Shown: positions 1,752-48,328 of the stretch, piece by piece
Layout: each line of letters starts with the position of its first letter
Numbering within the stretch: position 1 is the stretch's first letter
Origin: Trichoplax sp. H2
Lineage: Eukaryota
Assembly (NCBI GenBank): GCA_003344405.1
Contig: NOWV01000018.1
Coordinates: 434,001-498,000 of the forward strand
Length of the DNA stretch: 64,000 nucleotides
Reading direction: 5' to 3'
Notes under the pieces: model-generated
What the model saw: only the letters and a program-made list of their open reading frames with translations
Told to the model about the DNA's origin: nothing
The model's database searches: none
Translations under genes and position numbers: made by a program

Positions 1752-4729
1752 CTATAAATATCGTAAGGCTAACCTAAGTTCCTTCATGCAAGGTAAGTCG
1801 TCATGGTCTTTAAAGATTGCATCTAACTTCTGCGTCTGTAATAATGGTCAGAAGAGCAAGTTTAATCCTAAAACTGATAGTTGCAAAATTAGCTTAAAAT
1901 ACTGTATTTCGAGACGGACCTGTTCCTTGGTACCACTATAAATTGCATTACGGGAAATATCTGTAAGACTCCAGCTTAACGACGGCATCTAAAAACAGAT
2001 TTCGCAGATATGATGTCATTACCGTTTTATGCAGTGATAGATTTGCTATTTCAATATCTTACTTGTTTTACGCAATTTATGACATCAAGTACAACATCTT
2101 CATCAATTATTTTCTGAAGTACATTAAAAAAGTCAAGAAATTATTTTATTGGCCAAATTTAATCGAAATAAACATTATCAATTGACATACTTTCCTTACC
2201 TGCAATAAGATCCGATCAGTAAGGATTAGATTGGTCAATATTAGTAAAATACTCTATATAATCGATGATAGTATGGAGAGGTTTGCTTAGAAATTCGATA
2301 ATTTCATATAACATTGAATCACCATTATTATATCGTTTCCATATGAAGTAGGTATAATACCGTAACATACCTCTAAATTTGTTATACTTAATTTCTTATA
2401 ATTTTGTATCATTCCTTTCATAGAAGGTATTAACTTAATACCAATCGTTAACTATTAGATTAGAGACAAAGAATTTCACATATTTAATAAATCATCAAAT
2501 GTATTGGTGAAAGAAATCTAGCAATATCATATAAATAAACGTCTATACCACTGAGTGAGAGTGTTCTACCATAACAAGGCGATTTAGCAGTTGCAACGCC
2601 GGTTCCTTTAATACGATAATCAGAAAGAAAAAGGAAATTTTTATATGACTGAAAATCTACTGCAGCCAAGTAAAAGTAAATGGTATATGATTTAATATCT
2701 TATTAAGCAACATACATATAAGCGAGGCGACCCACTTGTAAACACTTCAAAGATACGAGGTAGCGTTATATGATTATGCAATCGCTATAAATCACGTAAG
2801 ATGTAGAATCAGTACGATTATTCATAAGCTCTTTGTGCACTATTGCTAAGTTTGCCTCTATCAATTTAATCTGTGATTAGCGTATACACAAACCGCTCCA
2901 TACCGCAAAAATAGGTTCATGTCGAAGCGCAAGCAAATTAATTAAAGTTTTAATTGTGTATTGTAGGACCTGCATAGTTCAATTAAGTTATTTCAATAGT
3001 TAATAAATATGAGGTGTAAAATAGCTTAATATAAAAAGACATCAAAGAATATCTAGTCTTACGTATTTAATAGTAAGCATATGGCATAATTTACAAACGT
3101 ATCAGTACCTGTACATCATCAGATTGTATTAGTATGCCAGTAATATGGAGCAACTAAACGCGAATGAAGTAAGAATCTATAATCAGTATAAAGATATAAT
3201 CTAATTTTTAACAAACAAGAAAGTTATGATTAGCTAGCTATCATATTGGTAGTTTTCTGACATTATAGCTGAAGGCTTCCCAAGTGAAATATCGCGAGGT
3301 AGCCAAGATGTATGTGACGGAGGCAGTCATCTGCAAAAATTCTATCTGCGTAGGGCAATTAAGAATTGATATTAATACTTTTCGTATATAGTACTTCAGG
3401 CTACCAGCATGATGTAAAGTACTAATTAACCTCATTATATCATTTATCTTAATACCTACCGATTTATTTAAATGGACAGCCTTGATTAAATTTTGGATCA
3501 TCGCACTTTGAAAATTAATTTCGCTAACTGAGTATAAAATAAGGAAAAGAGTATGAAATATTTCCTAATCTATATTCGTATACTGTTTGAATAGGGTTGC
3601 ACGATGCCATTGCAAATCAAAATAACGCATTAGTTACCATTACTAGCAATCGCTTCTAAAATTTTTAAGCAGTTTATAGTAAGACTTTCATGCGGAGAAA
3701 CCAACATCGGAAGTATTAGAGATATTCTTTCTGTTAATTTTTTCGAATAATGTTATTCATCAAAGCCTCAATTGAGTTAAGAACAAGTTCTGATGAATAA
3801 AAGTAATTGTAAACCTAGTTCTATGATAGGAACGGCTTCATTAGCATTTGGTATTTTTATAGGATAGAAGTATCGAAAGAGTACCGCCAGAGATGTTGAT
3901 ATTTCCATTAGCACCTCATAGCTATATGTGTAAAAATATCACAATATATAGTTTAGTAATTAACGGAATAGCTGAGTACAGAACTGAAAGTGTTTGACTG
4001 CTGCTTTTTTTGTTATATCCTCAGTATATGTAAATTGTTTACTAACTGATCATAGAGTTCAACCAGTTCAAGTAGGCAAGATAATAATCTAGATCTGTCC
4101 AAAATATTTAGGCCATTATTAGTATCAAAGTGATACAGTGCATTTACTCAATATTAATTGATAGTTTGTTTCAACTCTTGGCTATTACTTTTTTCTTATT
4201 AGGGCTTTGTCTTCATCTGATGTCCTGCAACATGAGAAGTTATCGATATTATAAGATTTTTGTATTTAAACACTAATGAAAAATTAAATTTTACAAGGAA
4301 AGATTGAACAAAACATTTGCAGTCACTAACTTTATAGACGGAGCTGACAGATGATGATCTCTTTCGATGTCATTCAAGTTGGATTTATCTATGTACTGCA
4401 GTATTAATTGCCTAAATATAAATTTAATAACTTATAAAGCTAGTAAATCAGGAATAATATAGTATTATTGATCATTACTGTACGATACAGGTTAAAATAT
4501 AAATATTATTTTATTCTTCTTCTTACCTCAGGCAATTAAGACGATAAACTAAATCTGCAGTTGACCTAGCATCATTGACATTCTATATAAGAATTTTGAA
4601 AATCATAGGAGTTTACGCGTACGATTAGAATATTATCGAAGTAGATGTTGGTATTAATTAGCTATTTAATTTTCCAAAATTGATACAGACCATTAATGCA
4701 ACTGATAACTGTCTCTCCTGGCGGCTCTC
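1752..4729 (-). CDS. Divergent importin-alpha-like ARM-repeat protein, paralog A (first exon not located; lacks three C-terminal exons)
   Basis: Spliced exons in frame: ESRQERQLSVALM / NVNDARSTADLVYRLNCLR / QLILQYIDK.. / LLSCLLELVELYD / YEVLMEISTSLAVLF.. / RISLILPMLVSPHESLTINCLKILEAIASN / SEINFQSAMIQNLIKAVHLNKS / IEFLQMTASVTYIL.. / LLHITGILIQSDDVQ / VLQYTIKTLINLL.. / RLHNHITLPRIFEVFTSGSPRLY / EPALQLLNRLV.. / SILLILTNLILTDRILLQ / KIIDEDVVLDVINCVKQ / MPSLSWSLTDISRNAIYSGTKEQ / TQKLDAIFKD..LRYL*. These are exon-for-exon homologous to the three plus-strand paralogs. Confidence 0.75.
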
Positions 4730-4824
4730 CTATTTCAGATGATGCATAAGTTATGAAAGAGGAAATGGGTTATCATAGTAAGAACAGCATAATTATATTA
4801 TATGTATAATCAATACAATTACAT

Positions 4825-5170
4825 TGATCGTTGCATTCTATTATGATGGTATAAAGTGCATCAGTTACATTGAATTACTTAACATATTAATCAATCGAAT
4901 ATATTCATGAGTGAGCTAGATAGTAGAATATAGATTTACGTTGATCCTTGCACTCTCTTGCGATAGTATTAAATACACCAGTTGCATTGAATTACTTACT
5001 ATATTAATTAATCAGTTAAATAAATGAATTTTACGATAGAATACGAGTATAGATAGATCGTTGCACTCTTTTGCAATGGTATAGAGCACGTCAGTTGAAT
5101 ATTTCCATTGATTGTGGTACTCTATTCCTATAGTACGTGTATAAAGTACGTCAATCGGATTGAATTAGTT
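4825..5170. repeat. Degenerate tandem repeat, about 117-bp unit, about 3 copies
   Basis: Recurring GATCGTTGCA(T/C)TCT...CAGTT.CATTGAATTACTTA motif near 4826, 4943 and 5057. The last unit abuts the LTR. Confidence 0.7.
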
Positions 5171-5176
5171 GATATA

Positions 5177-5726
5177 TGTTACGGTGTTACCTTATTGTTA
5201 GAATAGTATAATAGTGCAGTATAGTAGTAGCTAATATGGAAAATATCCATATTTGTAGTGCTAAGTAAGATAAGTAATGCCTTAACGTGGATATTATTTG
5301 TGATAGTTTATTATATATTTGATATTGATTATTATTACGTGTAGATAGCAGTAAGATGATTCAAGTTCTAGCTAATGATAGTTGAATTAGACAACATAAA
5401 TACTTAGATTAAATATAAGTAAGAGATTTAAATATTTACTGATAGAAAAGCCAAGTAAGGAACATTTCAGTTCGAGATGTCTCTACTAGTAAGGTATAAT
5501 ATTAATACTGCTGCTGCTGTTTGCAAATTAGACGGTTCCTATATAAATGGGAACATTTGAGTAGCGTTGGGTGGTGAAAAGTTGTAGATGTGTCTATGCT
5601 TATAAAGGTTCTATTTTTACGGTACTTTGCTTTATGTGTTTAACGTTTAGTAAAAGAGCCTTTAAGTCAGTAGTCACTTTAGACTTTTACTGTTTGTTTC
5701 CTTGTCGTAGAGTTTAATTTGTGACA
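5177..5726 (+). mobile_element. Solo LTR (550 bp) with 5-bp target-site duplication
   Basis: Termini TGTTAC...GTGACA (TG..CA, imperfect inverted ends), flanked by ATATA at 5172-5176 and 5727-5731. Internal TATA-like CCTATATAAA near 5538 and AGTAAA near 5649. Confidence 0.75.
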
Positions 5727-7100: not shown

Positions 7101-9698
7101 TTTCTTGTCATTGCTGTTGACAACAGCTAACTAATTTAATGTGGTAGAGACTAGTTGGAAGAGAGAGTAATGGAGTAGTCCCTGACGCCTGCAATCATAC
7201 TTATAGTATAATAATAGAGCTGGGAATTATAGGTGATAATAGCTCTATCTAACCGTAAGTTACTCCGATTCGAGATACTATAAAATGGCTGAGGTTGCTT
7301 TGCACGAGATGATGTTAAGGCTATCAGTAGCAGAATAGTTACTGTACTGTAGCCTAGCAATTTTTGAGATTCTTAGGTATTTCTGCTCAGATAGCTTGTG
7401 ATACTGACAGCAAGTTAGATAGATTAGATCGAGTCGGGTCTTTCCTTTTATCCAAGGTAGTAAACATCAGCCTGATAACATTTCAGTTTAGGGGATGACA
7501 AATTACCAATCAACGATTGTGGTTGATGTCTTGTACGAGATGGTGGAATCAGTAGCAAGACTTAGGTGCAGTATTTCTGCAATGGTAGCCACAGTAGCTT
7601 AGCTTGCGGTACTGTCATTGATTTAAAATATCAAATTTATAACTTTTCGGTTTAGGGTATTACAAATTACAAATTAAGGCGCCTAATAATAACCATTTTA
7701 ACGGTGTAAATAAGTGAATATGGGCAATCAGTCCATATTTTAAGACTATCTTGTGCCAATAACGAGGTTAGGAACAGCACTGGTAATCTATCTTCATATA
7801 GTCTACACATTATTAAGACTTGTAAATCACTGAGAATCTATAGGGAAAAAGGTTGCCAGGAATTTCAGATTTTAGTGCTCTTATTTTATAATTCTACGAA
7901 CTTCACGGACTGTTTAATGTTGGAGGATATTATACGATCTCTTGCGCTAAAATACAAATAGATGAGGCAATTCATTTATCTTTCCTTCGATATGCATAAA
8001 ATACAGCAAATTATATGCGGTAATCAGCATTCTGAAATAGACTGTAATGGAAGAGCTAGATTTATTTTAGACTCTATTCTTAAAATGATTATCTCATGAA
8101 TAATTGATTATCATTCTTGATTTAGGATCACCGTTATTTGAATAAATTTTACATTTCATATAAATATAATACAAATTGCATGTTAAAATATATGAGAAGA
8201 AAACGCCAGGCACAAATATACACGTATGTATTTTCTATCTAGAGTATCAAGTTTGATAATCACTACGCAAATAAAGATAAGTTAGATGTTGCAAGCAATC
8301 CTATGAATCATTCGATTTCTAAGAATACGCATGATGACGTTATTTAATGTCGCGTTAGCATCTATTTAGAAATTGCCTAACAGTAAAATTGCTATGGACA
8401 AACTCTGCAAAACTTGACTGCAGATACGAAATTATTTTCTAGGGCGTTACGGGATCATAACCATAACTTAGTGGAACCCAAGTGATTGGGGTATGTCGAT
8501 CGATCGAAATTAAGGCTATGTCATAAATGTCATAAGTGGTTTAACCGAGGCGAACTAAATAAATGAATCCTCATGGATAATTCGAAATAGTTTAATACAT
8601 CGAAAGAAATCGATTATCAAGCGTATTCTAAAAGTAGCTTTTCGCTACGCTGGTATATCATAATTAAGGAAAATATCACCTTGAAGCCATCCACACCCCT
8701 TAAAAAAATTTTCTCATATCTTTCGAAAAAATAACCTTAATTGACATCTTAGTATAAATTCAATGTTCTTTAAACTTTTGTATGAAACTGTACAGCTCTT
8801 CCGCTAACGCAGATACTTCCGGTTGCCCATTTGTATGAATAATCCGTAACTGTGCTAGAGCTATATATAAGCACAAAATAAGCGGTATTCATTATTTTAA
8901 CTTTTAAATTACTTCTTGATACTTAATATAAAATAATTTTTCTTGTATCTTACCAATAGCAATTCTTCTACTAATATCTATTCTATACTACATTCGGTTA
9001 GCATTTATCCATTGTATACTTACCATCATTCTTCATTTCTTTCGATAGATTCGGTAGCCACTAAAATTATAATATATATTAGTATACATGATTTCATGTT
9101 TTTAATATATTTCAGATATACTATCAATAGACTTCTACCAACACAAAACTATCGATATCAGATTTCGTATTAAGAAAGCAACCATACCTTACACTTTGAT
9201 ACCACAGAATGCAAACTAAAGAAGGATGGCATCATATTCTATTACGTAGTAATAACAAATATTTACAAATTAATGTGGGTCTTTAAATCCTAATTACACT
9301 TAAAAACAAGCAATAACGTATATAACAGAAATGAGTAATCTAACCTTATATTTATTTTGATCAATTAATGATGCAAACAGGTAAATAATCATTCGGTCAT
9401 GCTTTTGGACAAGATCACGTACCTATTACAGTTTAAAATAATAATAATTACGGAATAATTATAGATTTTGCTAAGTAGATACAATTTCAGTAAATGTTTT
9501 ATCGAACCTGATCATCACTTGCAAAATTGATCATATCTGCGAATATACTTGTTATCATTTTTCTATCCAAGCCAGGTGACTGTCAACGAGATTATAATTA
9601 CTAATGTCATATAATGATACTCTCTTATTGAATTGGCAGTAAATTATCCTGCTTAATTAAACTATTTTTACCATTTCTGAACATTTAAATATTGTAGA

Positions 9699-12629
9699 GA
9701 CCACATCTTCATCGATCATTTTCTATTTAATGGAAAAAGGAACCGCAAAGTTAATGTGTCACATTCAGATTTCTGAGCTTTAATGATTGATATTTTGCAT
9801 TGGTATTACGTTAATTTCGTTACCTGTACTAGTTCGTATCCATGATAAATTAATCGATTGATAATGGTTAATATCTCCTATAAATTACATTAGTTAATTT
9901 CCAATAAAAATACATGTATCGCTGTAACAGTATTATTAGTATTAAAACGATATGTTAATAGTTTTGTTGTATTTACTAACCGAAAGATCAGAAGTACTAT
10001 GAGTACACTTTTTACGTAATAGATTATGAAGATAGGACAGCACTTTGCTATCTAGCAGAAACTGGTAAAGGGAAATAACAATTAGTTTTGAATAGATATC
10101 ATATTGACAGAGCTATTATAGCATATGAAGTATGAAGATTATTAATTTGTATGAAGTCAAATTCGTTAATTACTTTATTTTCATTGTGAGAAACCTTTTC
10201 AATCGCGAAGTACAACAACTCAACGATAGGATTCTGTCAAGAAAAAACGAATACAAGTCTAAAGCAATCGCAGTTTCTAACTCATTGAATATTGCCTATT
10301 CTACCGATAAATTTACGTTAATTTGTTCACAATTTTCAAGTACCTGCAAATATAATGACTGGCTAGCTACAATTTCGCATGCATAACCAGTAGGAATTAA
10401 ATCCATATTTAATTGCCAAAGCTATTAATTTTTAATTTATTAGAATGGTTACTCTGATAAAATAAGTTGATGGACAGCATTTATTCGTGATAGCTGACAC
10501 TTAAACAGTTGCTTTTACAAGAATAAACATCACATAGAATTATGTAATACTTTAAAAAGATAAAATAGCTAACCTCATCATCAGTTTCATCTCTTATATA
10601 CGAAAAAATTGTATGCCTATTGATTATGATGACAGTCCATGCCTTTAAAATTTCTTTTAATACCTATAATATCGTATATTGAAAAGCTATGGTATAAAAA
10701 GAGAAACATAGTACAATCTTTGCTAATTAATTGCACCGGATTAAAGTATAAATTAATACTTTGACTGTATTGCTTACTCTTTATATGAATTTCATTTCAC
10801 TACATGTACGTACCTTGACATCATCCGATTTAATTAGCAGAACGACGATTTGCAGCAGCTACAAAAAAGTCGTGAATGATATACCATTTACTTTAGCAGT
10901 AAACACAACCTATAGCAATATTATTTGCAGATATCGTTCATATACCGGAATGATATGAGGAGATTGATATAAATATTTCATGCAAGCATATACTAATGAC
11001 GCTGTTGATCGAAGGAATTGAGTCTAGCGGTGTAAAAAATAATACAAGCTAAAATTAGCAATCGCATGCAAGCTATCATCATAGTACGGTGTAATAACAG
11101 TGCATTACTTACGGATCTACCCTTTGCGATTACATGGGCAATTTTTTGAACATCATCAACTCTAGTGATTAATATTTCCTCTATAATTTTTAATAAATTG
11201 TACATCATTAAAATTAATTTATGGCTATGCAACGCTTACTCTTTATTAACTTGAAACCATACCCGCACAATGGATGAGTAGCTGCATCGATTTAATGGCA
11301 AGATCTTCATATGGAGAAGCTAATAAATTAATCAGTACTGGGATACAATCTATTTACATTTAAGTAAAGGATAAAATCAAAATTTTAGATTGACCTGCAG
11401 TAAAGTTACAATCAAGAATAAGTACTTCATTTTTTAAACATTGATAATTTTCACACGAAATCATAACCTGAAGCTATAGGAAAGGAATAAAAATTTGAAT
11501 CACGACTACAAACTGATTCCAATAGTAGCATGATATCCATATCTAGATCGAAACTGCAAGACAAGTTTTAGTTGTAGCGTCAACAAACGTGGATGCTGTT
11601 TAATTATGAGCTATAATGCAGTATACCTATCGCTTTTTTCTATTAACTGGAATAGTTTTGAAACCAATTCACTTCTATGTCAATGATGATAGACAAATTA
11701 AGTTGGTAAATTTATTGTTAGACTTGGTTCTGATAAAGTTTTAAATCAGTGACAAGATAGGTGTATGCATATTTTATTGCTTTTACCTAGAACGGTTAAA
11801 GATAGTACAATCTTGAATATAACCAAACACGTCACCTCTGTAATTTAATTTAATTTAATTCTTTATATTATAATAAGGCTTCCAACGGCTATTTTTGTAA
11901 AAAAACATTAATGTAATGATTGTCTATGTTATAAATTCAAGTTATTTTATAGAAGTAGAATGAGTCAATATAATTTATATCGCTTAATAATTCTCAAGGA
12001 AAATCTTAGATTCGTGGCTATCAATGATGAAAAAAGAAGTCGATTAAAATATCTGACCTTTCGGCAGCCCAATAGCGATGAGATACTATTCTGGGCAGTA
12101 AAAGTCTAAAATTTCAAGAGCGTCTAGTTATTAATACATGTAAATAAAATTCAATTAAGGTTGATAATAGTATACGTATAGTATAAGCTAACAAAAATAA
12201 ACACTGATGTTTGCGTTTACTTTAAATGATGTATTGCATTTCGAGTATCATTACAACGTGGACCATGTCGGACATTCTTCTTACAGGGTAAAGACATACA
12301 TATAAAGATATAAAAATAGTAACGATTAGTGTATATAGGTACTGTAGAATTGATATATAAAAAGTTGTATTTAAATATCAAGATACCTCGACTGCGAGTG
12401 AAAAATGATCCAATAAAGCATCAATCTAAAAGTTTAAGATTGAAAAAATTTTGACTATTAAGTTAAATTAGTTAAACCTCATATTGTTATACATCAACGA
12501 TATTTTTCTATAGTAAACACCCAGAAATATTGCAAGGCTACCAGAATTTGTCTTACAAAGTGTCTTATAATGAACTCAAAATTACAATAGCATGGCTTAG
12601 TGTTTCGTTTTGCGAACATATTTTTATTG
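9699..12629 (+). CDS. Possible multi-exon gene or pseudogene with an ankyrin-like segment; structure unresolved
   Basis: AG/GT-bounded exon 10023-10064 encodes DYEDRTALCYLAETG (ankyrin DxxGRTALHxAAxxG-like). Nearby: IIFYLMEKG (about 9700-9750), and open candidate exons 12010-12097 (FVAINDEKRSRLKYLTFRQPNSDEILFWA) and about 12513-12629. I could not build a continuous frame. Confidence 0.3.
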
Positions 12630-13921
12630 GTATGACTAATACCAAAGTTTAGTTACTCCTAATCTTAAATTGTTTTACGCCAATTGAAATGCTTAATTCT
12701 ACTATAACACGCATATAGTCGTGCAGATTGTATTTTGATACACAACCTTTGCTAGATCTTCATCTTCACTGTCATTAGAATCCTATAAAGGAGTATTAAA
12801 AATTGATTGATGAGAATAGTTATCACTGGTAATATTATTAACATTATGTCAATGATGGAAAAATATCAGTAGTTTGTAATCACCTGCTTTAAACAATTTG
12901 TTATTGTGATATCAAATATTGTGCATGCAAGTTACCATTTTGTGCCTTTTAGTATTACCGTTGTGTTAGTGGTTATAGTTAACGGACATAACTAGTGAAA
13001 GTAAAGAATTTCATCTAGTACGGTGTTTGTTAATTAAACAAGAAAACCGTAAAGCTTTCGATACTTGTATGTTGCTAATCTACTCAATGTTGTCCCAGGT
13101 AGTATTTGAATGACATTTAAAAGACACACATCATCGATTAGCTAGCTTTCAAAGTTCTGATCTATTCGACAAATGAATGTCATCATTTGGATATTGCATG
13201 TGAAATCATACTCATTGAAGGAATTGTTTTCTATAAGCGTATTTACCTAGGGATCTAGACAATCCTATAGCTTATGATTGAGGTAATTAATCAACATAAA
13301 GACAAGATTGTCATCTGCTATGGAACATGTTTAGCCGGTCATTTTCGTGATTGAAATGGAAAAATCCTCCAGCGTTAGCAACTACAAAGGATTACTATTG
13401 CTCTTTAATCGCAACAATTATAGATTCCATTAAACCATTAATAACGGTGGAAATTGTGAGAAAAAAATCTAGTAATTATTCAAATTGTATACACTTATTC
13501 TACTATGTATAGAATTTGCACACCAAAAAATATTGATCAGACGATTGACGTATACAAACATGACTAAGACAAGGTATTACAAAATGATTACTGCTGTCTT
13601 ATCCCTATTTTCGTTAGATTCATCTATCTATAGCGCAAAACTGCTACTTCATATCCATCCAATACGCCTATTTCAATCACGATTGATTCCTTCTTACCTC
13701 AGTTATCGAATCGTCCTCTTCTAAATCACTGAAACTAGCCATAACAACAACGTACGCGTATCAATTAAATTAATGCAAATAGCTAGCAATTCGTTCTACA
13801 GCAGTCGTGTTTGGAATGGAATGGATCGCTAATTCCTCTACTCAATTGCTTTGACTACTTAAAAATCCAATTCAAGTAATATCAGAGTAAAAATATCTAA
13901 GTCGAGCAATTGATGGATATA

Positions 13922-18709: not shown

Positions 18710-21700
18710 ATGGAGGATCACGCACAGGTTTGATATTTGTAGAAATTTTCATGGCTTGTATCCATTAAAGTGGCCTAGAATTGCCTTTAGTAAATTGATA
18801 TTCTAATATAATAATCACACTAACATTAAAGCCTATTTTAAAAGATATTTAGGCCACGTAATACTTTAAATAAAACTATTAGCACTAATCTGTTAAGAGT
18901 ATTTATGCAGATAAAATGTCTATAAGAATTTAAATGCGAGTATGTAGGTAGCGATTAAAGCGAACTCATAGCTTTTAATTTAGTTTATTTATTATAACTA
19001 ATGTCTTTTAATAAAATCTATTACAACTCACAATTATTGTTATAAAATTCGGACAGCTCATTCAATCTATTACTTTTCTAGCCATTGGATGTTGAGCCAT
19101 TATGGTATATTTGGAAGGTAAGAGTTAAAGTTGATATATCATTTTAGCCATTATTATGGCATCTTCCAAAACGTGATCGGAATTTCACGAGGCTATTGAA
19201 AATATTATATGATAATATTATAGAAACTCGAAGATGCTACAAGCCAATCCCTTATTCGACAACATGTTCATTCTTTAAGGTAAAAGTTTATTATATAGTT
19301 ATATAACTAAATCCGAATGTATAAAATATGACTAGTGCCGGCAAGTACATTAATTCAATCTTCTTGGTACACAGATATTTACTCAGTTTCCCATATTAAA
19401 TATAGGGAAATCATCATGCAAATGACATTCCATGTTGAATGGAAGTTAAAAGATTGCCAGCAAGGTCTTGTATCTCATCATATTATCAAGTAAGTTATTA
19501 ATAGTGAAAAGAGTAAAGCATTCCAGAATGGCATTCTTGAAATTAATACTCACACACTTTATGATGTCTTATGATGATTTGAGAGTCAAGATTGCATTTT
19601 ACTTAAAATAAGGCAAATGATGATGATATTAACAAAGATAAATAACGTAGTATATTTAAAACAAATGCACTGTTAATATTTTTTACATTACATAATAATT
19701 TGAAGATCGATGTTGCATTTGTAAGGAGAGGAGAATAATGATGATAAACAGTATAATTCGTTGGCATAGTATTCTTTAAGTAAATGTATACCTATGCAAT
19801 GTATGTTACTATTAGTGATGTAGCTTTTCCTAAAATTTAGTTACTACAATAAGGATAGTATTAGTGCCGCAGAACACCTGAATATATTAATCTAAAGATA
19901 AATATATGCGCAGATTTATAACTCATTATGATGATTTCAAGATTGATTTTCATCTTACTAGGAATAGGGCAATTTTTAATTGTAATCAAACTATATCTCC
20001 CGTTAGTGATAGTAGTAAGAAAAATTTACAAGTGAAACCTTACTGTGATTGTAGGTAAGAAATTGGCGATGATTCTTTCTATCGGAGGTTATAAAAGATT
20101 CTTTATTGTACTTTCTTTAATTATTATTCACTTTTGGTATATTTCTAGGGACAAAGTTATAAGCTATTTATTTTATTTACTTGGAAACACTAACGAGTAC
20201 GATAATTTATAGAATACTGATATAAAGTAAACTTTCTAGAGCATAAGCTGAATGATATTTTAAGATAACATCTTACTGTCTTTAAATAATAAAGCTATGA
20301 CTTGCAATTTGAATCCATGGATATTATTGTCATCTTACTCAACTATGATCTAACAATAAATTGCCATTACGCAGCCATAACTCCAGGTATTTATAGTATT
20401 ATCTTATAACCAAGCTATTAAGCCATTTTAATTTCAAAAAGTAGTGTTACGAATATATATCAACTTATTTCATATCTTGTGTTACAGCTGAACATGAATT
20501 ACTAATCCAACTGCTTTCATCGCCATATGAAGAGATTGCTATTAAATCTATTCAGATTTTACAAGTTTATGCGAGTAAATATTTATAAAAGTACAACATT
20601 ATCAAATACCCTATCCGATACCATAGTACTCACTAAAGTATATTGAATATTGTATACTAATTATTTAGCTTATAATGTACGATGTAAATACGTTTGATTT
20701 TGTTTCTTTACTTTCTAAAACAAAAGCAATCGGCGTAATGATTTATAGTACATGATTATTTGATGAAATTATTTTCATCTCCATTTGACTAGAAACATTT
20801 ACCGTTTCAAAACGCCAATTTATACAGGAATTAGTAAAGGTTGTCAATGCTGAAAGATCAGTAAGACTATTCGAATGCTTTCGCCTTATACTGTAATTTA
20901 GTCTAGAGCAAAATTATTATTAAATTTTTTCTGCCTCGATAAACTTACTATTAAAATTATTTTGTAACAGACTGAATTTTTGCAAGCAACGGCATCGACT
21001 TTAAACATTTGTATTCGATTATTCTATCTTGTACAAGAGAATTTTGCTGCTGTGAGAAGATTTATAGCCTGCTTAAATTACTTTATTAATCACTGAAGCA
21101 TGAACAGCATTTTTCTGCATCAATTAAGAGAAAGAATAATAATTTATGCGCATATTTCTTACAGATAATGCAAATTATCGCTATTTTAATTCAGTCTGAT
21201 AGCGTTAAGGTAAATTATAATTATTATCGAAAGGAGAGAAAAAGTAGAATTTTCTTATTTATTATCATTCAAAACCATTCCTAAGAAGTGTCCAAATATT
21301 AAATAGATTTTAGAAGAAATTATCGACATATTAAGACTTATTCTACGATTATCGCATTCAATCGGAGGTGAAGGCAAAGTAAGCTTACTTCTACCAGTAG
21401 CTAAATATTTGTCAATTCTTTATGGTTATAACCTAGACATATCAAATCACGCGCCTAAATTTCAATATTAAGTTTGTTATAATAATGATTCCGATTACTT
21501 CTGATCCAATGATAATATTCGACTTTTGTAGACTGTTTTTTACTCTATCATTGGAAGAATATTGGAAATCATGTCTAGTCAATCGAAATCTCTTCAGGTC
21601 AGAATTGATTACGGTATAAATAATAATCAGACTTAATTTTAAGTGTTTTCATATAAATTGAAAGTAACCTCGGAAATGTGGAAATAATATGAAAACTTAA

Positions 21701-24700: not shown

Positions 24701-24744
24701 ATCATTTACTAAATCGTAAAAATTCTAACTGCCGATTGATGTAG
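18710..24744 (+). CDS. Divergent importin-alpha-like ARM-repeat protein, paralog B (about 21 coding exons, about 450 aa)
   Basis: Continuous spliced frame: MEDHAQ / PLDVEPLWYIWK / KLEDATSQSLIRQHVHSLR / EIIMQM.. / DKVISYLFYLLGNTN / YDLQFESMDIIVILL.. (cf. importin-alpha LQFEAAWALTN) / EHELLIQLLSSPYEEIAIKSIQILQVYA (cf. LLxSPHxxVxEQAVWALGNI) / TEFLQATASTLNIC.. / IMQIIAILIQSDSVK / .. / VVIDQDIITPILNCTNI / YSDLHWITWRIILRAVKFRPKEQ / .. / VLSRIDLICNKYKDDQRLMQLAQELHHLL..*. The start codon is tentative. Confidence 0.85.
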
Positions 24745-30947: not shown

Positions 30948-33900
30948 ATGTTTTTGAGAGGAAATAATGTAATTTACTAAATCTAATTACACATGCGATG
31001 TATCATACGTTGTCATAGAGAGTTTAAAACGAGTATTCGTTTCCTTTTTGTAACTCTAATTATTTTCTGTTATTTAAACTCCATCAATTTTATTGTAATG
31101 ACAGTAAACAGAGATTTTCCAATCCATTTATAGGCCTATCCACGTCAGCTTTCAATGGAATTTCAGGTAGAAAACGAACAAACATTTTGCTCAGAATTAC
31201 TTTCTCGAATCCATGAAGCTTTCGATAATCAGATTTTTAGATAAATTTATGACAGATGAACAACAAATTTCTTTGTTAACCTTGAAATTGATTCGCGATC
31301 GTAGACTCTACAATCGGCAAATAATGGCGATAATATTTTACGGATTCTTCAAAAACTGCGGTAATTTCTGAAGCATCCATAGTTGATTTCTTTTACTCTT
31401 CAACTTACATAACATATTTATAAAAATACAGGAATACAGCAGACCGTTTCCTTCCTAAACCAATCTGGTCTCAAGGGCGAAATTTGGATAGCCCTCTTTC
31501 TCTTCAAATTATGGAGTAAGTTGCCCATAACCATGATTGCCTCAACATGTCCAGTACACTAAGCGCATCTTAATCAGAAAGTACTTCAGAAAGTATTTTC
31601 TATGTCTTTGTTAATTTATCTGATCTCTACTAATTTGGTTCTTACTTTTATTGCAGTGAAAGAGCAAAACCTATCGAGATTTGTTTACCTTTGCAACAGT
31701 ATGTATTTTCTTCTAAAAAGACCGATAGAATCATAACTCAGATTATGTTAGCAATTGACTAATCCATATGTTTCTATAAATAATTTCATAGGCCAATCAT
31801 TAGAAGACTGTTTAGCCTCTTAAAAAATTATGATTGGTTTGTGTACTTGTATAGGCGCTTGTGGATTCATTTCAATAGCCTAACTATCTTCTGATAATAA
31901 TATTCTGTTTTCCATTGGGCTATAGTTATGATTTACGTCTAGAAATTATGGATATCTTACAACGTGTAATCAGTTATGATATTTATACATGCTACGTCAA
32001 TAGCTCCATCGACAGCCATAATGAAGGTACAAATAATGTTTCATCCAGCATGATTGATTTATCTACTTTACATCATCTTTGCCGATTTTCATATTATAAT
32101 TACAAATAACTTAACTTATCCAACGTGATTAATTTATCTACTTTATATCGTCTTCATTAGTTACTAATTTATAGATATAAATAAGATCTTTTATTCAGTA
32201 TGATTGATTTATCCATTCTACATTATCTAGATCAATTTCCATACTATAGTTATAAATAGCTTATTCTTTCTAGCATGATTGATTTATCCACTTTGCATCA
32301 TCTTGGCCAGTCGCCATATTATAGTTCATTCTAATGAAATCTTTCATTACTATTTCACGACTACTCGAGATCTAATCTCGAAAATGACTGATTCCCAGGA
32401 TTGACCGTAACAATTATACTGATCTTGTAGAGCAGATCTAATTGCAACAATAAGCACAGCTAGGCACAACACGATGAAGGTTTATCTGTCGTTATGCTGT
32501 CTCATTTCGTATTCCTTTAGTTATACTTCCATATTGACATTGGTCAACAAAGATTCGCTTGTAATCAATGATTGAATAGAAATGGTTGTCAAGATATTTA
32601 CAGTTTTACATGATCTATTTGTAATAGAATGTACCTAGCGCCATAATTTGACAAACAGACAAAGCAAATATGGAATGGCCATCATTTGTCTTTAACGCCT
32701 CAGGCAATCTTCGTGGTATACGTCTGTGTTAGTTCTTAATGATAATCTATCTCAATGGATAGTATGGATATAGTCTAGCCACGATGCTAAGCAACAATGA
32801 TTATTGGGTTCTATCTGAAGAAAGATTCATTGATACATTTTCATGCTGTGATTAATCAAGTAGATGAAGAAGTTGTTAATGACTCTTAACGTTGACACAG
32901 ACCTTTAGTTGTAAGCTTAAAATCAATCTAAACATGATATTCTCGTAAATAAGCCACCGGTAACGTCATAGCAAAATCGATAGACGTATGAAACTAATAG
33001 TTTATGATAGCTTGTCACAATCTTCACTTGTGGCAAAGATTTATAAAGACTCTAGAGTAGGTACGATAACTCAGCTACTTCTCCAGAATTTCCAGTCTCC
33101 ATGAAAGCGATATTGTAATGATTTCAGCTAATTAAAGTAGTGGTATGTTAGGAATACAGTGATAGTATGTAGTATAGAACTGTATATCTTAATAAATGTC
33201 AAGAACCCATACACTACAGATATACGAGTATAAGAGAACTCGATTTTTAGACTAATGAATTGATACACTTTTCTTCGCGTTATGACTCCTGCACACTTTT
33301 TTAGCAATTGTCACTTTTATTCTGCAAACTACTCGCGCTTAAATGAATCTTTATAGTGCAACTTTGAGTGTTAATTTGCTCCTGACTTTTAATTCCTATG
33401 GAAATTATTGTAGATAAAGTACGACTACTACTCCATTTCTTGTCATTACCATATGAAGATCTAGCTATTAAATCTATGCAGCTGCTGTCCGTTTATGCGG
33501 GTAAGTTGATTCAGTTGGATCAAAATTTTGTTTTTATCATCCTTAAGACAACTTATATTTCAGTCTCTGTAGTACCTAAACTACAGTGGTAAACTATCAC
33601 ATTAATAATGGGAATAAAAGCTGAAAGGAATATTCTTACTAATTAGATTTAAAACTCATTCAAAATCGAGAGCTAAACTTTGTTAAAATGTTAGCTAAAG
33701 CCATTACCCTTGAAAAATCGGCAAGTTCTATTGTGTTATTTTAAATTAAACTAAACTTTTAATCTCGTCAATCATCTAATTTTGCCGTAATTTCATTAAC
33801 AAAAGGTGGAATTTATGCATGCAGCGGCAACTGTTGTTAACATTTGCTTTAAAGATACTTTATTATCTCAGCATGACCATTTAGAAGATGTAAGAAGGCG

Positions 33901-36356
33901 TCAAATATTGCTAAATCACTCTTAAAAAATTGCTTTCTGCGCTATAATACTCATTTCAGGTCCAACTAATGTTCAGATTCTGAGTTTAATTTTTATTTTA
34001 CAGCTAGCTGCGATTGCTTGTGTTCTACTTCAATCTAATGATATTGCAGTAAGTATTATTATTATTTAGCGAAACATAGGCACGTATATTGGAATCCTTA
34101 AAAATTCCAACCTATAAATTAGGCCTTAAGTATTATACTATCCTGATCGCAGATTTCCGGTGAGATGATTTCATTGTTGGTGCAAGTATCTTCAGAAACG
34201 ACATCTAGTAATGGGGTTAGTTAAAGCTATATCATTGCTGAAATTGGGATAGATGATTATTTAGATATTTTAAAATTGGTTATATATATTGAGTTTGGTA
34301 ATGGTATTAAAAGTCAATCTTCTATTTGGAATTAGGCGTATATCAAAAAGTTATTTAACCTGATACCTATTGGCAACATTTTTGAAGTTCTAGCGGTGGG
34401 ATCAATTCATCTAAGTGTAGGTTTAATTTTATTATGATATTAAACCGAAGAATAGAACTGGTTTTTAACTAGTGACTATCTTTTTCAATTAACTGTCTTA
34501 ATACAATTTCATTTACATCTAGATATCCGTTGCATCTATGGTCTTCAATATTATTACTTCAAATTCTATTTCTCACTCTTCTCAGGTACTGAACATTGAT
34601 TTATTTCTAGATGCAATCTGACTAAAATTTTTTCACTCCTAGTAATGATGGATAAAATTGTATCCTGATCCATCAGATGTAGTTTGCAGTTTGTACGCTA
34701 TTTAAGCAATATTATTTTATATACATCATGATGGGATTAAACTTAGTCTGATTACGTTTAATAATATTTTAACCAATAAATAATTAAGCAACACTAGCTC
34801 ATCTTTTTATACCATTACGATTTCATAGTTTCATTTTGGTCGAAAAACGTTAATATACTTGAAAAAAATGTTGAAAAAGCCTTCCAATTATACTGAATCC
34901 CAATTAAAGGTATGTACATTACAGTATGAAAATTGTATTAAGAACTTTGATTAGCGTGAGATACTGAGTGAGAATTTCAAAGTAATATTATTGTTACGAT
35001 TATTTTTTAATTCAATAAAATCTACAAAATTATTTCCTATAATGTTTGATACTTTCTTTTTAGAAATTAATTTGGGAAATCGGCTGGTTTGCCAAAGCTG
35101 ATCATGCTTTAGTTCAGGTAATTTGCATCCCTGTATTTAAAATTAATCCCATACATGTATACGTTTGTTAAAACCAATGCTACCCTGTACTCATTTCAAT
35201 GGCTATCAAACAACTAATAAATTTCTGTTTAATTTATTTATTCAGGTTATTATCGACGAGGATATTTTGTCAACCGTCCTTCTATGTGCTGAACAGGCAA
35301 GTTTAATTCAAGGATTGATACATTAGGTAGCCCAAATCTTCGAACTTGATTTTTCATCTATTTCTACTACCAGTTTCCTTACTTGTATGGCAGTATTATT
35401 GTACAAACGATCTTCTTTGTCATTGGCTCTGGGAATGAACATCAGGTTAATATCTTGTTTCTCATACTTTAAAAATATTACAAAAATTGAGCACTAAGAC
35501 TTTTTATATATTGAAAAATCTGAATAGATAAAAGTCTTAATTCCAAGTTGCAATTTAACCCAGTGTTTAAGTTCCATTTTGTTACATAAGAATGTTCTTT
35601 ACGTAAGTTGCTACATAAATCAAATCAAATATTATACTGATATTGTGGTGTCATCATCAGTATGATTTATACACTGTTAATTCCGTACAGATCTAAAATT
35701 ACCTTACCTACTGTATAATATTAAAATCTTATGTACATAACTATTAGGATATTGTCCGAGTTGTAGAAGTATTATGGACAATTTTAAACAAATGCCAGGT
35801 ACTGTTAATCCTTAACTTTACTGACAAATTTTATAATTAATTTCATATTTTAATATCGCTTATCGATATTGATGTGATGGAAATATGAAGGTAATTTTAA
35901 AATCTATCATACTGTAATTGAATTTTTACGTCAGGAAATACCTGGATTATTGGAATGCAATAATAGCAAAGGTAGGTGTTTAAGTTTTAACTGATAGAAG
36001 TCTATTCATTTTATTGGATAGAGAATGTCTTTTAAAAAGCCCAATAATATGTTTAATTTAGCAATATTATTGATCATCTGTATTTAGAACTGATGAAAAT
36101 GGAAATCATATGCGATTCAATTGTTCGTAATCCAATTGTGCCGAGAGAGTACGAAGGTAAGCCTTTGGTTTTCATGGTAAACTCAATTTAATTGCGATAT
36201 ATTTGTTTCATTGCAGCTATAAGCTTAATTGGGGAACTAATAATTCAATAAATGCAAGCAATGACTCATAACGTTTTCTATTTTAATTTTTTCCATATAG
36301 ATTGCGCAAAAAAACTTGGACGATTCATAAAATACAATGCCATTGCTCAACATTAA
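30948..36356 (+). CDS. Divergent importin-alpha-like ARM-repeat protein, paralog C
   Basis: Spliced frame: MFLRGNN / AYPRQLSMEFQ / TLQSANNGDNILRILQKLR / .. / PIIRRLFSLLKNYD / YDLRLEIMDILQRVIS.. / DKVRLLLHFLSLPYEDLAIKSMQLLSVYA / .. / VEFMHAAATVVNIC.. / LAAIACVLLQSNDIA / .. / KLIWEIGWFAKADHALVQ / VIIDEDILSTVLLCAEQ / FPYLYGSIIVQTIFFVIGSGNEHQ / .. / DIVRVVEVLWTILNKCQ / .. / DCAKKLGRFIKYNAIAQH*. Two GC donors are needed. AATAAA overlaps the stop. The start is tentative. Confidence 0.8.
32043..32325. repeat. Intronic tandem repeat, about 75-80-bp unit, 4 copies
   Basis: (A/G)TGATT(G/A)ATTTATC(T/C)A(C/T)T.. recurs near 32050, 32125, 32200 and 32275, inside the long intron of paralog C. Confidence 0.85.
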
Positions 36357-39300: not shown

Positions 39301-39584
39301 GAGAAATAATCTCATCTCGATACCAGTAGGTTTCTCTGCTGAAAATCTGACATTTCCACTGATTAATAAATTATGAAACAAATTACAGTATCAAGTAACA
39401 AATTATCATCGTATGCTTATGGCTCAGACGGCGCAGAATACCTCATGCTAAGACATGATTTCACGCGGATACCGTATACATATTAGCAGGTATCTCGTAT
39501 AAAATATGAATAAAATCTTCCAATTCCATTGATAGTTAAATGGTGCCATAAGTTGCAATATGAAATATCTCTTTAAATTTATCG

Positions 39585-43300: not shown

Positions 43301-43457
43301 GAGGAGTAATCGTTACCCATACTCCTAATCTACGAGAATTAAGACTTTAAAATCAAGATCGTTAATAATAATGTAAATTTCTAAATTTTGATGCAATAAT
43401 CAGTTGCATTACTCATACGCATAAGTAACGATGTTTAAATACTTTAAGGCATGCATT

Positions 43458-46400
43458 ATGCAAGAACTAATATCAATATTAATGGTAAAGTAAGCTTTAC
43501 TAGTTTGATCATTTATGCAGTTGTTCATCATGTATTTTAACTCAGATATTTTTGATTGTGGCTACGCAGTTTATAATCGAATTAAACAAAATTTAAAGCT
43601 ATAATCTATCGTTATGCAAAAATACTTATTTATTCTAATCAAAATATTTTCACGGCTGCAATTCTCATCTACAGATACTAAATATTAATACACTATGGCA
43701 GGAATTAGAGGTAAGAACGATTTAATAATGACAAATCACTATTATCAACTCATCCTATTTTTATATTGATTAGTTGCTTGTCTTAATCTTACATTTGCAA
43801 AATTTGATAGTCTTACAATCCAGCAAATCTTCAACCTGTAATGTTGGCATATGTGGAAAATCTTGGGTAATTTCATGTCTTGTTATATCTTGCTATAAGT
43901 ACTACACTATCTAGCTATCTAAGATATTGACAGAAGCAAAATTTAAGCAACCGTATTTTAACAAACAGTATCCTATTAATTATGAACTTGTTATGTCTTT
44001 AAACACTTCTTAACGTAAATAAATATATTTTAAACTCAAGGAGGATTGTTTCGGAACTGATCTCAGTGGCAATTGATAATAGCCTAGCTACCTATTGCCA
44101 TTCCTTAGTAATGGAAGATGTCGTTAGGTTTGTTCTAAGAATCTAACTTCATGTAACGTTTCAACCATAACTACAAGTGAACTGAGACAATTGATATATC
44201 TGGAGATTCAGTGATAAGTAAATAGCTTTAAATATTTCGTTTGATTATTTTAGTCAAGTAGATCACGACAGCCAGCACGATCCATTCTTCCTTGTCCGGT
44301 AATCATATAGGACATCTGCATATTAATATCGACTTTTTAGTAATTCTTCGGCAATATTTATTGCTACATACGTATTACTTCTAGTGATCGATTACTGGCT
44401 AAACTTATTTCTATTTTGGAAAATTTCGACGAGTAAGTCAATCCATACTAAATTATTATAAAAATTGGCTGTAATGTATACTATCTGAACAATTCATTGA
44501 CACAAACTGTACTCATTCTCGTTGCGGCTTTCAGTTTCGAATTGCAGATGGAAACTACAAAAGTTATAATCACGTTTATCGATTATTACCATGGATATGT
44601 GGTCTTTCAATGTCCAAATATTGAATCAGGTAATCGTTTTTAAAATAAAATCGACAAAGTTAATTTTTTAAATATAAAAACCATACGTCTATATTTCAAT
44701 GTGAGCTGATGATCTCACATTTATAGTGTACGTTGTTATAAATATGACTGATTGTATTTGCAGTAAGATTTTATGCTAGAGTCACAATAATAAAGTATGG
44801 CTAGTGCTATAAATTCTAATGGAATTGTAATATTTGGTGATGGTTATCGGTACCCTAACCTTGTAACGTGATTTAAATATGTTTTATTTTAGACGATATG
44901 AGAACTCTCATTTCGCTTATCTCATCTCCATATGAAGAAATAGCCTTAAAATCGATGAAGATTATCCAGACATATAACACTACAAAAACCTATACAGGTT
45001 TAAATGCAAATAAACTTTTTTAATATCATTAGAATGAAATTCTAACTTTCTCAAAGGATACCAGCTAAACTAGAAGTCTTCTTACCATTAATGCGTTGAT
45101 TTACCAATTAGCCTCTTATCGCGTGCCATGTTTACATCTAGGAGAGCATCTAGTTCTAAAATGTGGTTTAATGCGAGAATTAGCCAAAGTAGCTACTATC
45201 AGTAAATCGGTAAGCTATAGCTAAATATATTATATGCGTATTATCTTTGGTTATTATACCCACGAAAGTATCATTTAGCAGAATTAATGAGTTAAGTCTA
45301 CTTTTTATATTTATATTTTTAGACTGCGTTCCTTCAAAGCGTTGCTGCAACCATTAATACTTTGGATTGGACAGTCTTTCGTAGCTTTAAGGATTACCAT
45401 GCTGACGTAAGATATCTCAATTTTTTGTATTCTCTTAGTAAATTCACTTTATATAGTACATGTACCAATGTTTCATAATCCATGGGATAATAAGATTATG
45501 ATAATTTTATCACTATAGCTTGGGATCACTATTTCTATTCTAATGCAATCCAACAATATACAGGTTATTATTTCACTACTAAGAATATTCTATTTTTCCC
45601 CGTATACTCTATTGTGTGTATTTATACTACAGAAATATATCCATGGCAATGTATTTACTACGGAAAACGCTATTAAAGTAATAATTTAATCTAACAAGCT
45701 TATGATAATTGATTCATTTAGGTCCTACGAATGACAATTAAAGCACTGACTAAAATGACAAAATTTGATTCACAACATGTTAGGGTATGTTGATAACAAT
45801 TTTCTTGCTGAATCTTGTATACATATATGTACATGATCATTTCCTTAACTTTGATGCTATGTTTTATATCTGTCACATATAAATGTTGCTTACTCCTATG
45901 TTCGCCTTGGATTAATATCACTGCATCAAATATTTGCCATCATTAATTTTCCTATTTGATTACATTATCTATAATAGGAAGTTTTTCAGTCCTTGCCAGT
46001 GACGTTAGAAGTTCTAAAAAGCGAATCACCGCGTTTATTTGTAAGAAAAGTGTGAAAAGCACGATAGTATCCCTCAAAATCGGATATGACTAACTATATA
46101 TTTACATTATTTTGTTAGGATATTACCGTAAAACTACTAGAACTCATTGCAAGAAGAGTTCGATTTCGTTCACAAACGAAGGTGATTAAATAGATTTAAG
46201 ACTGTTACAGGGTCAGAGATAATTCTCTGCTGGCTAATATGATAGTGATAGTGAAATTATAAATACATACTAAATTAATGTGTGTTTGATACAAGTATTA
46301 ATATTAGTCTTAATTTACAAACATAATGACTACTGATACATTAATTTTATAATTGTATAAAAATGGCTGCTATTTTATCGTATTTACAGTTATTAATTGG

Positions 46401-48328
46401 TTCCAAAATCATAATTTACCTGAAAACAATGCTACAGAATCCAGGCTTTTGCAATATATCACAATTTCGAGTAAGAATCAAAATACCAATTTGCATTATT
46501 ATTATCTTTAATATAGAAATAAATATTCCTAAGCTGTCTTTCAATTGGATGGATTACTTATTAATACAATGATCCGTATTGTTTAGGTACTTTTTAAGGT
46601 GCTAGATGATTTTTCCGCAACAAATGATGCCCTATTACAAGTAAGAATGATGTGATAGTACAATATTTAATTAGATGGATATATTTGCATTTTCATAAAC
46701 TGTATCTTATATTAATTAGACTATCATACAAAGATATATATTCAGTCTATTATAATACCTACAGAACATATCAATTTTAAGTTTTTCTAAACTACCAATT
46801 TCAAATTATTATTTGGTATGGCACTTTAATTTAGCTTCTATAAAAGCAGTCAATTTATTCAATTTATATTATAGTAGCTCTGATTTAGTATGTCCTAATG
46901 AACAACTTCAAAATTTTTGTGGAGCATAGTCCTAGTATTTAGGTTGAATTATAAATACCACTACTAGAACTTAAACGGTGCTATAGATATTAACATCTTA
47001 TTGAATTCTTACGCTATAATAAAATTTAGGCCGCTAGGGATTCTGTTTCAAGATTTAAAATCAGTTTACTAAATTAGAATTTAAGCTATATTGTAACAGC
47101 TATATTCCGCATAGCTTCTCTATTAAATTCACTTAGTTAGAATAATCAGCTGTTTATTTTCAAGTATAGTCTATACTGAGATTTCTTTACCTGCTTGAAG
47201 AATTTGACTGAAATTTATATGATTCACATTTAATATACTTTGCATATATCAATTATATCCCAAAAATACGCTTGTGATTAATTTACTATAAATTTCAGTG
47301 CCGTTTAATATATGATAATATTCATTTCGTGATCCATTTACAATTATAGAAGCTCATTAGCGATTCTGAAACTTTAACTACAATTCTATCCTGCGCCGAA
47401 CAAGTAAGATATTTTTTATTAGTATTGCTAAATTGGCACAGTACGTATTTTAAGCAATATATGTATCCTGATTTACTATAATTATAGGACTTCATCTATT
47501 TTCGAACAACGGCTTGGAGTATTGTATTTCGAATTATAACTACTGCCACCTCAGAACAAGTAATAAATTAGTATTAGATCATCAATGCATGTTTATTACT
47601 GTTTTCATAATCCACATTATTTATCTAAACGGTTTCTGTATTGAATATCTTGACAGATCCAATATTTGCTAGATCAATCTAATCTGAAATATTATCTTTG
47701 TAACCAATTACTAAATACAGCTAGCATTGAGGTAAATCATTTCACACTCCTATCCAAATAATCATTTAATCTACTTCTGTACATATATAGTTTCAATAAA
47801 TATGACGTTATTGACAAGCATATGAAAAAAAGTAATTAAATTGATAAATCAAAAGCATATATCAATAATATAACTAAAAATTACTGCTATTAGAATCTTC
47901 GCAAAACCCTAAATGCTATGGCTACAATAGCTACCAAGTGCAAGGTAGCATTAATATTTATATCATTTCCTTTATTACCTAATAAAATCCCCATGGTTAT
48001 GAAATACGTTAATTATTTACTTTTTATATATCGATTTAACAGCGATTTCCAAGCTTGTCCGATGATATGAAAGCAACTGGTAATTATAACTTGTAAAACT
48101 TATTGATTCAATATTAAATGCTTACTTAAGCTTATTGCTCGATTTTGATTTAATTTCAACTTTCTCGGACATATTATTTCATCTATTCGATTAGTAATAT
48201 CTAGAATTGACGCTATATACAAGGAAAACCGCGATATTAATTCTATATCTGAACCAGCTCAGAAATTACGACGTCTCATGAAAACGAAAAAGGTTAAAAA
48301 ATTCGATATCGGATGTACAATAACTTAA
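43458..48328 (+). CDS. Divergent importin-alpha-like ARM-repeat protein, paralog D
   Basis: Spliced frame from exon 43675-43710: ILNINTLWQELE / SYNPANLQPVMLAYVENL / RIVSELI.. / DRLLAKLISILENFD / FELQMETTKVII.. / DMRTLISLISSPYEEIALKSMKIIQTY.. / GEHLVLKCGLMRELAKVATISKS / TAFLQSVAATINTL.. / LGITISILMQSNNIQ / .. / KLISDSETLTTILSCAEQ / DFIYFRTTAWSIVFRIITTATSEQ (cf. GDFxTQKEAAWAIxN..SG..EQ) / IQYLLDQSNLKYYLCNQL.. / VISRIDAIYKENRD..KLRRLMKTKKVKKFDIGCTIT*. The first exon (43458-43484) is a guess. Confidence 0.82.

Follow-up and report, generated by a model that had tools for sequence, protein, structure and literature searches.

Importin-alpha is usually among the most conserved proteins of eukaryotes. 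A 64,000-nt stretch of the Trichoplax sp. H2 genome (contig NOWV01000018.1, positions 434,001 to 498,000 of the forward strand; this whole stretch is referred to as the window) raises the question of whether copies of such a protein can diverge beyond the reach of common sequence searches and what such copies might do. An earlier annotation made from the letters of the window alone, hereafter the sequence-only reading, had described a cluster of four extremely diverged, importin-alpha-derived genes between positions 1752 and 48328. The analysis presented here finds the cluster and enlarges it to five tandem genes, g0 to g4. It is considered likely that these genes descend from importin-alpha, lack the importin-beta-binding (IBB) domain and probably represent armadillo (ARM) scaffolds repurposed to work independently of importin-beta.

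A cluster of five collinear genes

The window is AT-rich (GC 0.29-0.37) and contains only seven open reading frames (ORFs) of at least 100 aa, which marks it as eukaryotic sequence with small exons; none of the seven falls inside g0 to g4. The largest exon of g4 measures 134 nt, and the genes are indeed invisible in an ORF track, as had been noted. An all-versus-all comparison of six-frame pieces revealed one exon common to 11.3 kb (minus strand) and to 20.5, 33.4 and 44.9 kb (plus strand), with E-values of 1e-8 to 1e-6. Mapping of public proteins onto the window and a scan with the family hidden Markov model (HMM) identified five collinear paralogs, so that the previous count was one short. 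Beyond these, the HMM scan of the window returned nothing at E<1 except for a weak piece at 54056-54160 (E 0.39). The end points previously given for the cluster are exact, since the stop codons of g0 and g4 end at 1752 and 48328, respectively.

The paralogs encode approximately 330-500 residues each and share 16-30% pairwise identity, in agreement with the earlier remark that few residues are shared despite a common exon plan. All five spliced models are free of internal stops. For g4, an exact spliced model was obtained in which 22 exons are separated by GT-AG introns throughout (21/21) and whose translation equals the public H2 protein TrispH2_002538 (P0002) letter for letter. Its terminal exon (48197-48325, plus strand) is 100% identical to both this 499-aa protein and the 359-aa protein TRIADDRAFT_54156 (P0001), and the Trichoplax adhaerens models of g0 to g3 map onto the window with few substitutions (Table 1).

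Probable descent from importin-alpha

When window proteins were compared singly with Pfam, no Arm or IBB match was obtained, P0002 yielding only noise (E ~0.1), and the gathering score of Pfam Arm (PF00514) was missed by all of them, the best being P0007 with 13.5 versus 20.6 bits. P0002, the sole window protein searched singly against the PDB (phmmer, E ≤ 10), likewise returned only noise (E ≥ 0.28). The assignment therefore depends on profiles of seven to eight sequences. Profile A1 comprises seven family members, with the unlinked paralog TRIADDRAFT_56612 left out.

Against the PDB, the best match of A1 was human importin alpha-3 (e.g., 4uae_A; E 9.6e-21, 77 bits), which forms one collinear stretch between profile positions 71-401 and chain positions 56-374, and yeast importin-alpha carries the match to profile position 445 (residues 419-421). 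The part of importin-alpha covered by the family thus reaches from about ARM2 to ARM10, collinear with the order of the ten repeats. The best 60 of the 65 PDB matches of A1 (E ≤ 10) consist of 32 importin- or karyopherin-alpha chains and 28 designed armadillo proteins; no catenin, Vac8, HEAT or other natural ARM family is found among these 60, and neither Vac8 nor the catenins reach the profile similarity of importin-alpha there. With importin-alpha as the best natural profile match, the proposed derivation is supported. A1 favors alpha-3 (77 versus 57 bits), a preference that is not seen for P0012, the H2 ortholog of TRIADDRAFT_56612. The C-terminal part of importin-alpha comprises an atypical repeat (Pfam Arm_3) and the region that binds the exportin CAS. 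Arm_3 was not matched by any of the 11 proteins scanned, yet A1 aligns to the C-terminal repeats of yeast importin-alpha.

The sequence-only reading had also quoted several motifs as remnants of importin-alpha. All of them are present: LQFES, LLSSPYEEIA, EFLQ and VLSRID in g2 (plus strand), and a second EFLQ together with SGTKEQ in g0 (minus strand). Their pairing with importin-alpha motifs could be confirmed in part. LQFE, SPYE (for SPH) and FLQ/FLR are situated on aligned columns of A1 and importin-alpha, whereas SGTKEQ was aligned by hand with the '..EQ' of the canonical ARM8 motif, and VLSRID is connected only through P0012, whose 'VLQKIE' aligns with 'V[IL]SRID' of the family in the alignment of A1 with P0012.

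A less diverged paralog and the reach of the family

A HMMER search with P0002 against 1.84 billion representative proteins returned ten proteins at E ≤ 0.001, nine from Trichoplax and one unnamed 65-aa fragment. The T. adhaerens models of g3 (1.8e-13), g1 (1.6e-10), g0 (1.7e-7) and g2 (1.3e-5) were recovered with a similarity that exceeds chance, as well as, from outside the window, TrispH2_002525 (= TRIADDRAFT_54146) and TrispH2_002528, which are located on the same 855,400-bp contig as TrispH2_002538, and TRIADDRAFT_56612. A word-filtered homology search returned only P0002 and P0001 for the family alignment and only P0005 and P0012 for P0005. The earlier description of the expansion as lineage-specific holds to the extent of this single search, and the attribute "fast-evolving", taken from divergence only, describes a presumed rate.

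TRIADDRAFT_56612 is unlinked to the cluster (other scaffold) and less diverged. It bears the UniRef name 'Importin subunit alpha', and its H2 copy is annotated as 'Importin subunit alpha-1' (the two proteins are P0005 and P0012). P0012 has 481 aa, a Pfam Arm match at 3.5e-16 (P0005: 2.3e-12) and no IBB, and as a single sequence it finds importin-alphas in the PDB with E-values of 6e-41 to 1e-35 over query positions 27-453. It also aligns with A1 over 409 columns (hhalign, probability 99.96%, E 8.5e-39) and shares with the cluster the motifs SSPY[DE]ELAIKS (SSPYDELAIKS in P0012), IQELAKV.TL.KS and LIQ.DD. P0005 and P0012 therefore belong to the same IBB-less family as the cluster proteins but differ from them by their Pfam Arm repeats, the WxxxN pairs of ARM7 and ARM8, the motif TPALKTLGNVV and their recognition as importin-alpha in single-sequence searches. 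Judged by these matches, P0012/TRIADDRAFT_56612 is a bridge between the cluster and importin-alpha.

Apparent loss of the IBB domain and of the ligand-binding ladder

Neither IBB (PF01749) nor Arm_3 was matched in the 11 annotated proteins (P0001-P0009, P0011 and P0012; Pfam, E up to 1 or 10). In five of seven N-termini, acidic residues are at least as frequent as basic ones; the balance is close to neutral in P0004 and P0009 (11 K/R versus 10 D/E) and slightly on the basic side in P0003 (10 K/R versus 5 D/E). A crude scan of the window with an IBB pattern yielded four K/R-rich ORF pieces, none of which was judged to be IBB-like.

The Trp/Asn ladder of importin-alpha forms a major binding site for nuclear localization signals (NLSs) at ARM2-4 and a minor site at ARM7-8. 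The W and N positions were transferred from importin alpha-3 in the alignment of A1 with the PDB, and the members were aligned to the same HMM. In this low-identity alignment, none of the genes g0 to g4 exhibits a complete WxxxN pair at ARM2, 3, 4, 7 or 8. P0012 has kept the pairs of ARM7 and ARM8 and lost those of ARM2-4. Judged by eye, residues conserved in the family appear to be situated outside the groove-forming helix-3 segments, and the helix-3 positions vary between paralogs.

Predicted structure

AlphaFold2 modeled P0002 from an eight-sequence alignment as an all-helical protein with 27 helices (predicted local distance difference test, pLDDT, 70.3; predicted template modeling score, pTM, 0.65), the N-terminal 90 residues being poorly defined. 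In a Foldseek search of the PDB with this model, 40 of the 41 listed rows were importin-alpha, beginning at E 2.4e-8 with template modeling (TM) scores of 0.47-0.62 and alignments of approximately 450-470 columns at 14-16% identity. The expected first rank of importin-alpha was thus obtained with Foldseek, while VIA-align places Vac8 level with it. The ESM Atlas model of P0002 similarly lists importin-alpha clusters first (TM ~0.6), and the ESM feature search returned mixed ARM families. Plakophilin, p120 and beta-catenin reach Z-scores of 17-20 in VIA-align. The all-helical AlphaFold2 model and the VIA-align Z-scores of 17-23 are in agreement with the right-handed superhelix of three-helix repeats that characterizes the ARM superfamily.

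Exon plan, gene models and transcription

Exon models were obtained by chaining candidate exons according to splice-site score, frame and HMM coordinates, with two spots set by hand (the end of g0 and one in g3). The genes comprise 16-22 small exons, mostly of phase 0, whose order, sizes, phases and positions are conserved between the paralogs. The exon details listed in the sequence-only reading (a 56-nt phase 0/2 exon, a 45-nt exon and '..EQ' exons of 69-72 nt) were reproduced. The '..EQ/..DQ/..HQ' exon measures 69 nt in g0 and g2 and 72 nt in g1, g3 and g4. Exons of 81 and 54 nt occur in each of the five genes, and the latter is followed by one of 51 nt in g0 to g3, so that the pair of 54 and 51 nt described before exists in four genes, but g4 has 54 and 54 nt. 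The penultimate exon measures 37 nt in g1, g2 and g4. As the '..EQ' exon of g0 leads directly to the terminal exon ending at 1752, this gene lacks three exons (profile positions 363-416). The public model of g3 omits the 51-nt exon (35246-35296), the donor of which is GC.

The T. adhaerens models of the 2008 type (54152, 54154, 54155 and 54156) skip conserved exons or have wrong termini. TRIADDRAFT_54156 lacks the first 140 residues of the H2 model. TRIADDRAFT_54154 (g2) is missing several exons, among them the SSPYEE exon (20488-20574), and ends in sequence derived from the 3' untranslated region (UTR); its C-terminus (24853-25050) is wrong, as a 1157-nt RNA contig of run X7 shows the terminal exon given in Table 1 ('..VLSRID..').

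RNA contigs of four runs were placed on positions 18600-36500; X5 and X7 represent two studies, and X8 is a run on record as RNA. Of 15 joints listed, nine are located in g2; each of these is GT..AG and agrees with the exon model. X5 and X7 carry all nine, X8 carries one. The 1157-nt X7 contig extends from 20971 to 25023 and into the 3' UTR of g2; between 20971 and 24476, twelve exons of the model sum to 745 nt, which equals the span of its record positions 15-759. In another X7 contig, the LQFES exon is spliced to the SSPYEE exon absent from the public model. At 33449 and 33483, an X7 contig has loose ends that match g1 exon sequence letter for letter across the 11263/11180 junction; therefore, at least one g1 junction is spliced in RNA. 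Joints 30968>31134 and 27652>31132 lead into the first mapped exon of g3, the core of which has little or no contig cover and is uninformative on g3 expression. Consequently, g2 is transcribed and spliced as modeled, and one junction supports g1. The proposal that the predicted exons are spliced together holds, within the placed stretch, across twelve exons of g2, to which the g1 junction is added.

Interpretation and alternative explanations

An importin-alpha-derived, IBB-less family, so far found only in Trichoplax, is supported, its function being predicted from sequence. Most likely, and most economically, its members would be ARM scaffolds that act independently of importin-beta and whose binding grooves have diversified. 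In this model, a duplicate of importin-alpha would have lost its IBB and subsequently been multiplied by tandem duplication, and divergence would have continued until single-sequence searches no longer recognized the copies. Without an IBB, neither coupling to importin-beta nor auto-inhibition is expected, and classical NLS binding is not expected because the W/N ladder is lost. Outside the classical import cycle, each protein might instead hold a partner of its own on its diversified concave (helix-3) surface and serve as adaptor, retention factor, anchor or decoy. The proteins appear to be under constraint, since frames have stayed open at 1-3 changes per site and spliced transcripts exist (g2 and one junction of g1).

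Several observations weigh against the scaffold model. No single window protein reaches Pfam Arm, and P0002 alone finds no relative in the PDB. The absence of an IBB refers to gene models of which four out of five are old and miss exons, so that an unannotated 5' exon is possible. Isolated ladder residues persist in the low-identity alignment, namely the W of ARM8 in g2 and g4 and the N of ARM4 in g2, g3 and g4. A maximum-likelihood tree of eight members is a star, with all five inner branches open and end branches of 1.1-3.4 changes per site, and therefore no order of duplication can be derived from it. Finally, VIA-align, which compares 48,161 representative chains independently of Foldseek, gives tied Z-scores of 22.4 for yeast importin-alpha, 22.5-23.4 for designed ARM proteins and 23.4 for Vac8. 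Because of these ties, the structure indicates an ARM solenoid only, and the link to importin-alpha rests on the sequence profiles.

The same ties could be taken to indicate generic ARM proteins that stem from a different lineage (Vac8-like, catenin-like or axonemal) and resemble importin-alpha at the level of the fold only, and the ESM feature search does list vimar/RAP1GDS, ARMC8 and UNC45 clusters. This origin is very unlikely, however, given that the profile retrieves importin-alpha as the only natural family among the best 60 of 65 matches and that P0012, which matches importin-alpha at 6e-41, carries the family-specific 'SSPY[DE]ELAIKS'. Conversely, the collinear and nearly full-length alignment and the UniRef name of the unlinked paralog might suggest ordinary, functional importin-alpha adaptors that look odd through poor gene models. 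Such an explanation would have to account for g4, whose complete 22-exon model with its exact translation still shows neither IBB nor Pfam Arm, for g2, most of which is confirmed by RNA, for the lack of any complete WxxxN pair and for the failure of P0002 alone to find importin-alpha in the PDB at E ≤ 10, and it is regarded as extremely improbable.

Extreme divergence, the disappearance of the ligand-binding residues and the three exons missing from g0 would also be compatible with decaying duplicates (pseudogenes) without a function of their own. With branches as long as 1-3 changes per site, however, unconstrained sequence would not have remained open, and frames are open across 16-22 exons in all five spliced models, g4 retains GT-AG at every intron and, as the only paralog modeled, the predicted ARM fold; moreover, spliced g2 transcripts are represented in the contigs of one run from each of two studies, a third run contributes one g2 junction, and one g1 junction is spliced. 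Decay is accordingly a quite unlikely explanation. A more specific function would be that of a diversifying placozoan family of IBB-less, importin-alpha-derived decoys or sensors, the helix-3 grooves of which might capture foreign or selfish proteins that normally exploit importin-alpha. This idea is speculative and unlikely. Trichoplax harbors intracellular bacteria, and effectors of these bacteria would be among the candidate targets. If true, one of the simplest animals would possess an armadillo-based recognition repertoire.

Coordinates and neighboring sequence

The positions of the genes and of their diagnostic exons are summarized in Table 1.

Table 1. Genes of the cluster and exons shared between the paralogs (positions in the window)
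Feature	Position	Strand	Remarks
g0	1752..5250	-	~16 exons, shortest paralog; matches TRIADDRAFT_54152 (P0008)
g0 terminal exon	1835..1752	-	stop codon 1754-1752
g1	8760..13742	-	~20 exons; matches TRIADDRAFT_63721 (P0007)
g2	18710..24744	+	~20 exons; matches TRIADDRAFT_54154 (P0009); terminal exon 24626-24744
g3	31134..36356	+	~22 exons; matches TRIADDRAFT_54155 (P0004)
g4	43431..48328	+	22 exons, 499 aa; identical to TrispH2_002538 (P0002)
56-nt phase 0>2 exon	g2 19224-19279, g3 31305-31360, g4 43811-43866	+	from exon models
45-nt phase-0 exon ('..LIQSDDV..' type)	g4 45519..45563	+	in all five genes
45-nt exon homologues	3109-3153(-), 10814-10858(-), 21165-21209(+), 34004-34048(+)
72-nt '..EQ' exon	g4 47488..47559	+	= ARM8 (importin-alpha 'AAWAISN..SGG..EQ')
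'..EQ' exon homologues	1920-1988(-, 69 nt), 9508-9579(-, 72), 23370-23438(+, 69), 35374-35445(+, 72)
Most conserved exon	g4 44893..44997	+	= ARM3; 'LISSPYEEIALKS' aligned to importin-alpha 'LLxSPHxxVxEQAVWALGN'
ARM3-exon homologues	3638-3730(-), 11263-11349(-), 20488-20574(+), 33414-33500(+)

Next to the cluster on the side of g0 lies a single-exon ORF (169-1185, plus strand) whose 338-aa product is a G protein-coupled receptor of the rhodopsin family (Pfam 7tm_1, E 1.2e-23). Between g1 and g2, two blocks of approximately 500 bases with 100% identity (13900-15010) surround a gap of 20 N (14463-14482). This arrangement probably reflects either misassembly or a tandem duplication of very recent date. 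Between g2 and g3, at 27650-31000, RNA joints of the CT..AC and TT..AC type with fairly high depth represent introns of a minus-strand gene. Within an intron of g3, a 44-nt stretch (33153-33196, plus strand) is present in contigs of all four runs at a depth of up to 64 (X5), where its flanking sequence is different and letters resembling GTAAGT/ATAAGT come after the stretch. It resembles a short element that is dispersed and transcribed and whose 3' edge is donor-like (mini-exon, spliced-leader-like or similar to a short interspersed nuclear element), occurs as a single copy in the window and has no Rfam match; the Rfam scan of the window as a whole gave no match at gathering score. Downstream of g4, several ORF pieces of 100-108 aa (48550-52650, minus strand), one with a weak Pkinase match below the cut-off (E 0.008), probably belong to an unrelated multi-exon gene. 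Tandem or low-complexity arrays with self-matches in all frames are located in introns and intergenic regions at 6056-6563, 15361-16500, 39450-40310 and 59784-59990.

Comparison with known systems

With canonical importin-alpha (karyopherin-alpha/Srp1), the cluster shares a collinear ARM solenoid from about ARM2 to ARM10 and remnants of LQFE, SP[HY], FL[RQ] and SG..EQ, but it differs by the absence of an IBB, of any complete WxxxN pair and of Pfam Arm and Arm_3 matches. The scaffold would have been kept, and both hallmarks of importin-alpha function, its importin-beta handle and its NLS groove, would have been lost. Canonical importin-alpha, the half-degenerate TRIADDRAFT_56612 and the cluster may form a natural series from adaptor to new binding scaffold. 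The family lies below Pfam detection and, for P0002 as the protein examined in this way, below single-sequence detection; its assignment provides names for at least seven 'hypothetical' placozoan proteins, and several gene models in public databases are corrected by it. Among the 'orphan' genes of early-branching animals, there may likewise be many unrecognized derivatives of core machinery.

Tetrahymena, a ciliate with nuclear dimorphism, possesses a large, divergent family of importin-alpha-like proteins within one lineage. Both this family and the placozoan cluster are divergent importin-alpha expansions of a single lineage, the former in a protist. Literature searches brought up no publication dealing with an importin-alpha expansion in placozoans or with the gene identifiers treated here; the papers retrieved were judged unrelated from title or abstract. 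In a plant, IBB-less importin-alpha paralogs with 50% and 28% identity to alpha-1 have been reported to be non-nuclear (PMC12227655). They share the lack of the IBB with the cluster but are less diverged and do not form a tandem cluster. In Drosophila, recurrent lineage-specific duplicates of nuclear-transport genes are described, with fast evolution and meiotic drive being discussed (PMC8645118). The Drosophila duplicates are reported to have arisen through RNA intermediates (PMC8645118), whereas the copies of the Trichoplax cluster are tandem DNA duplicates that have kept 16-22 exons.

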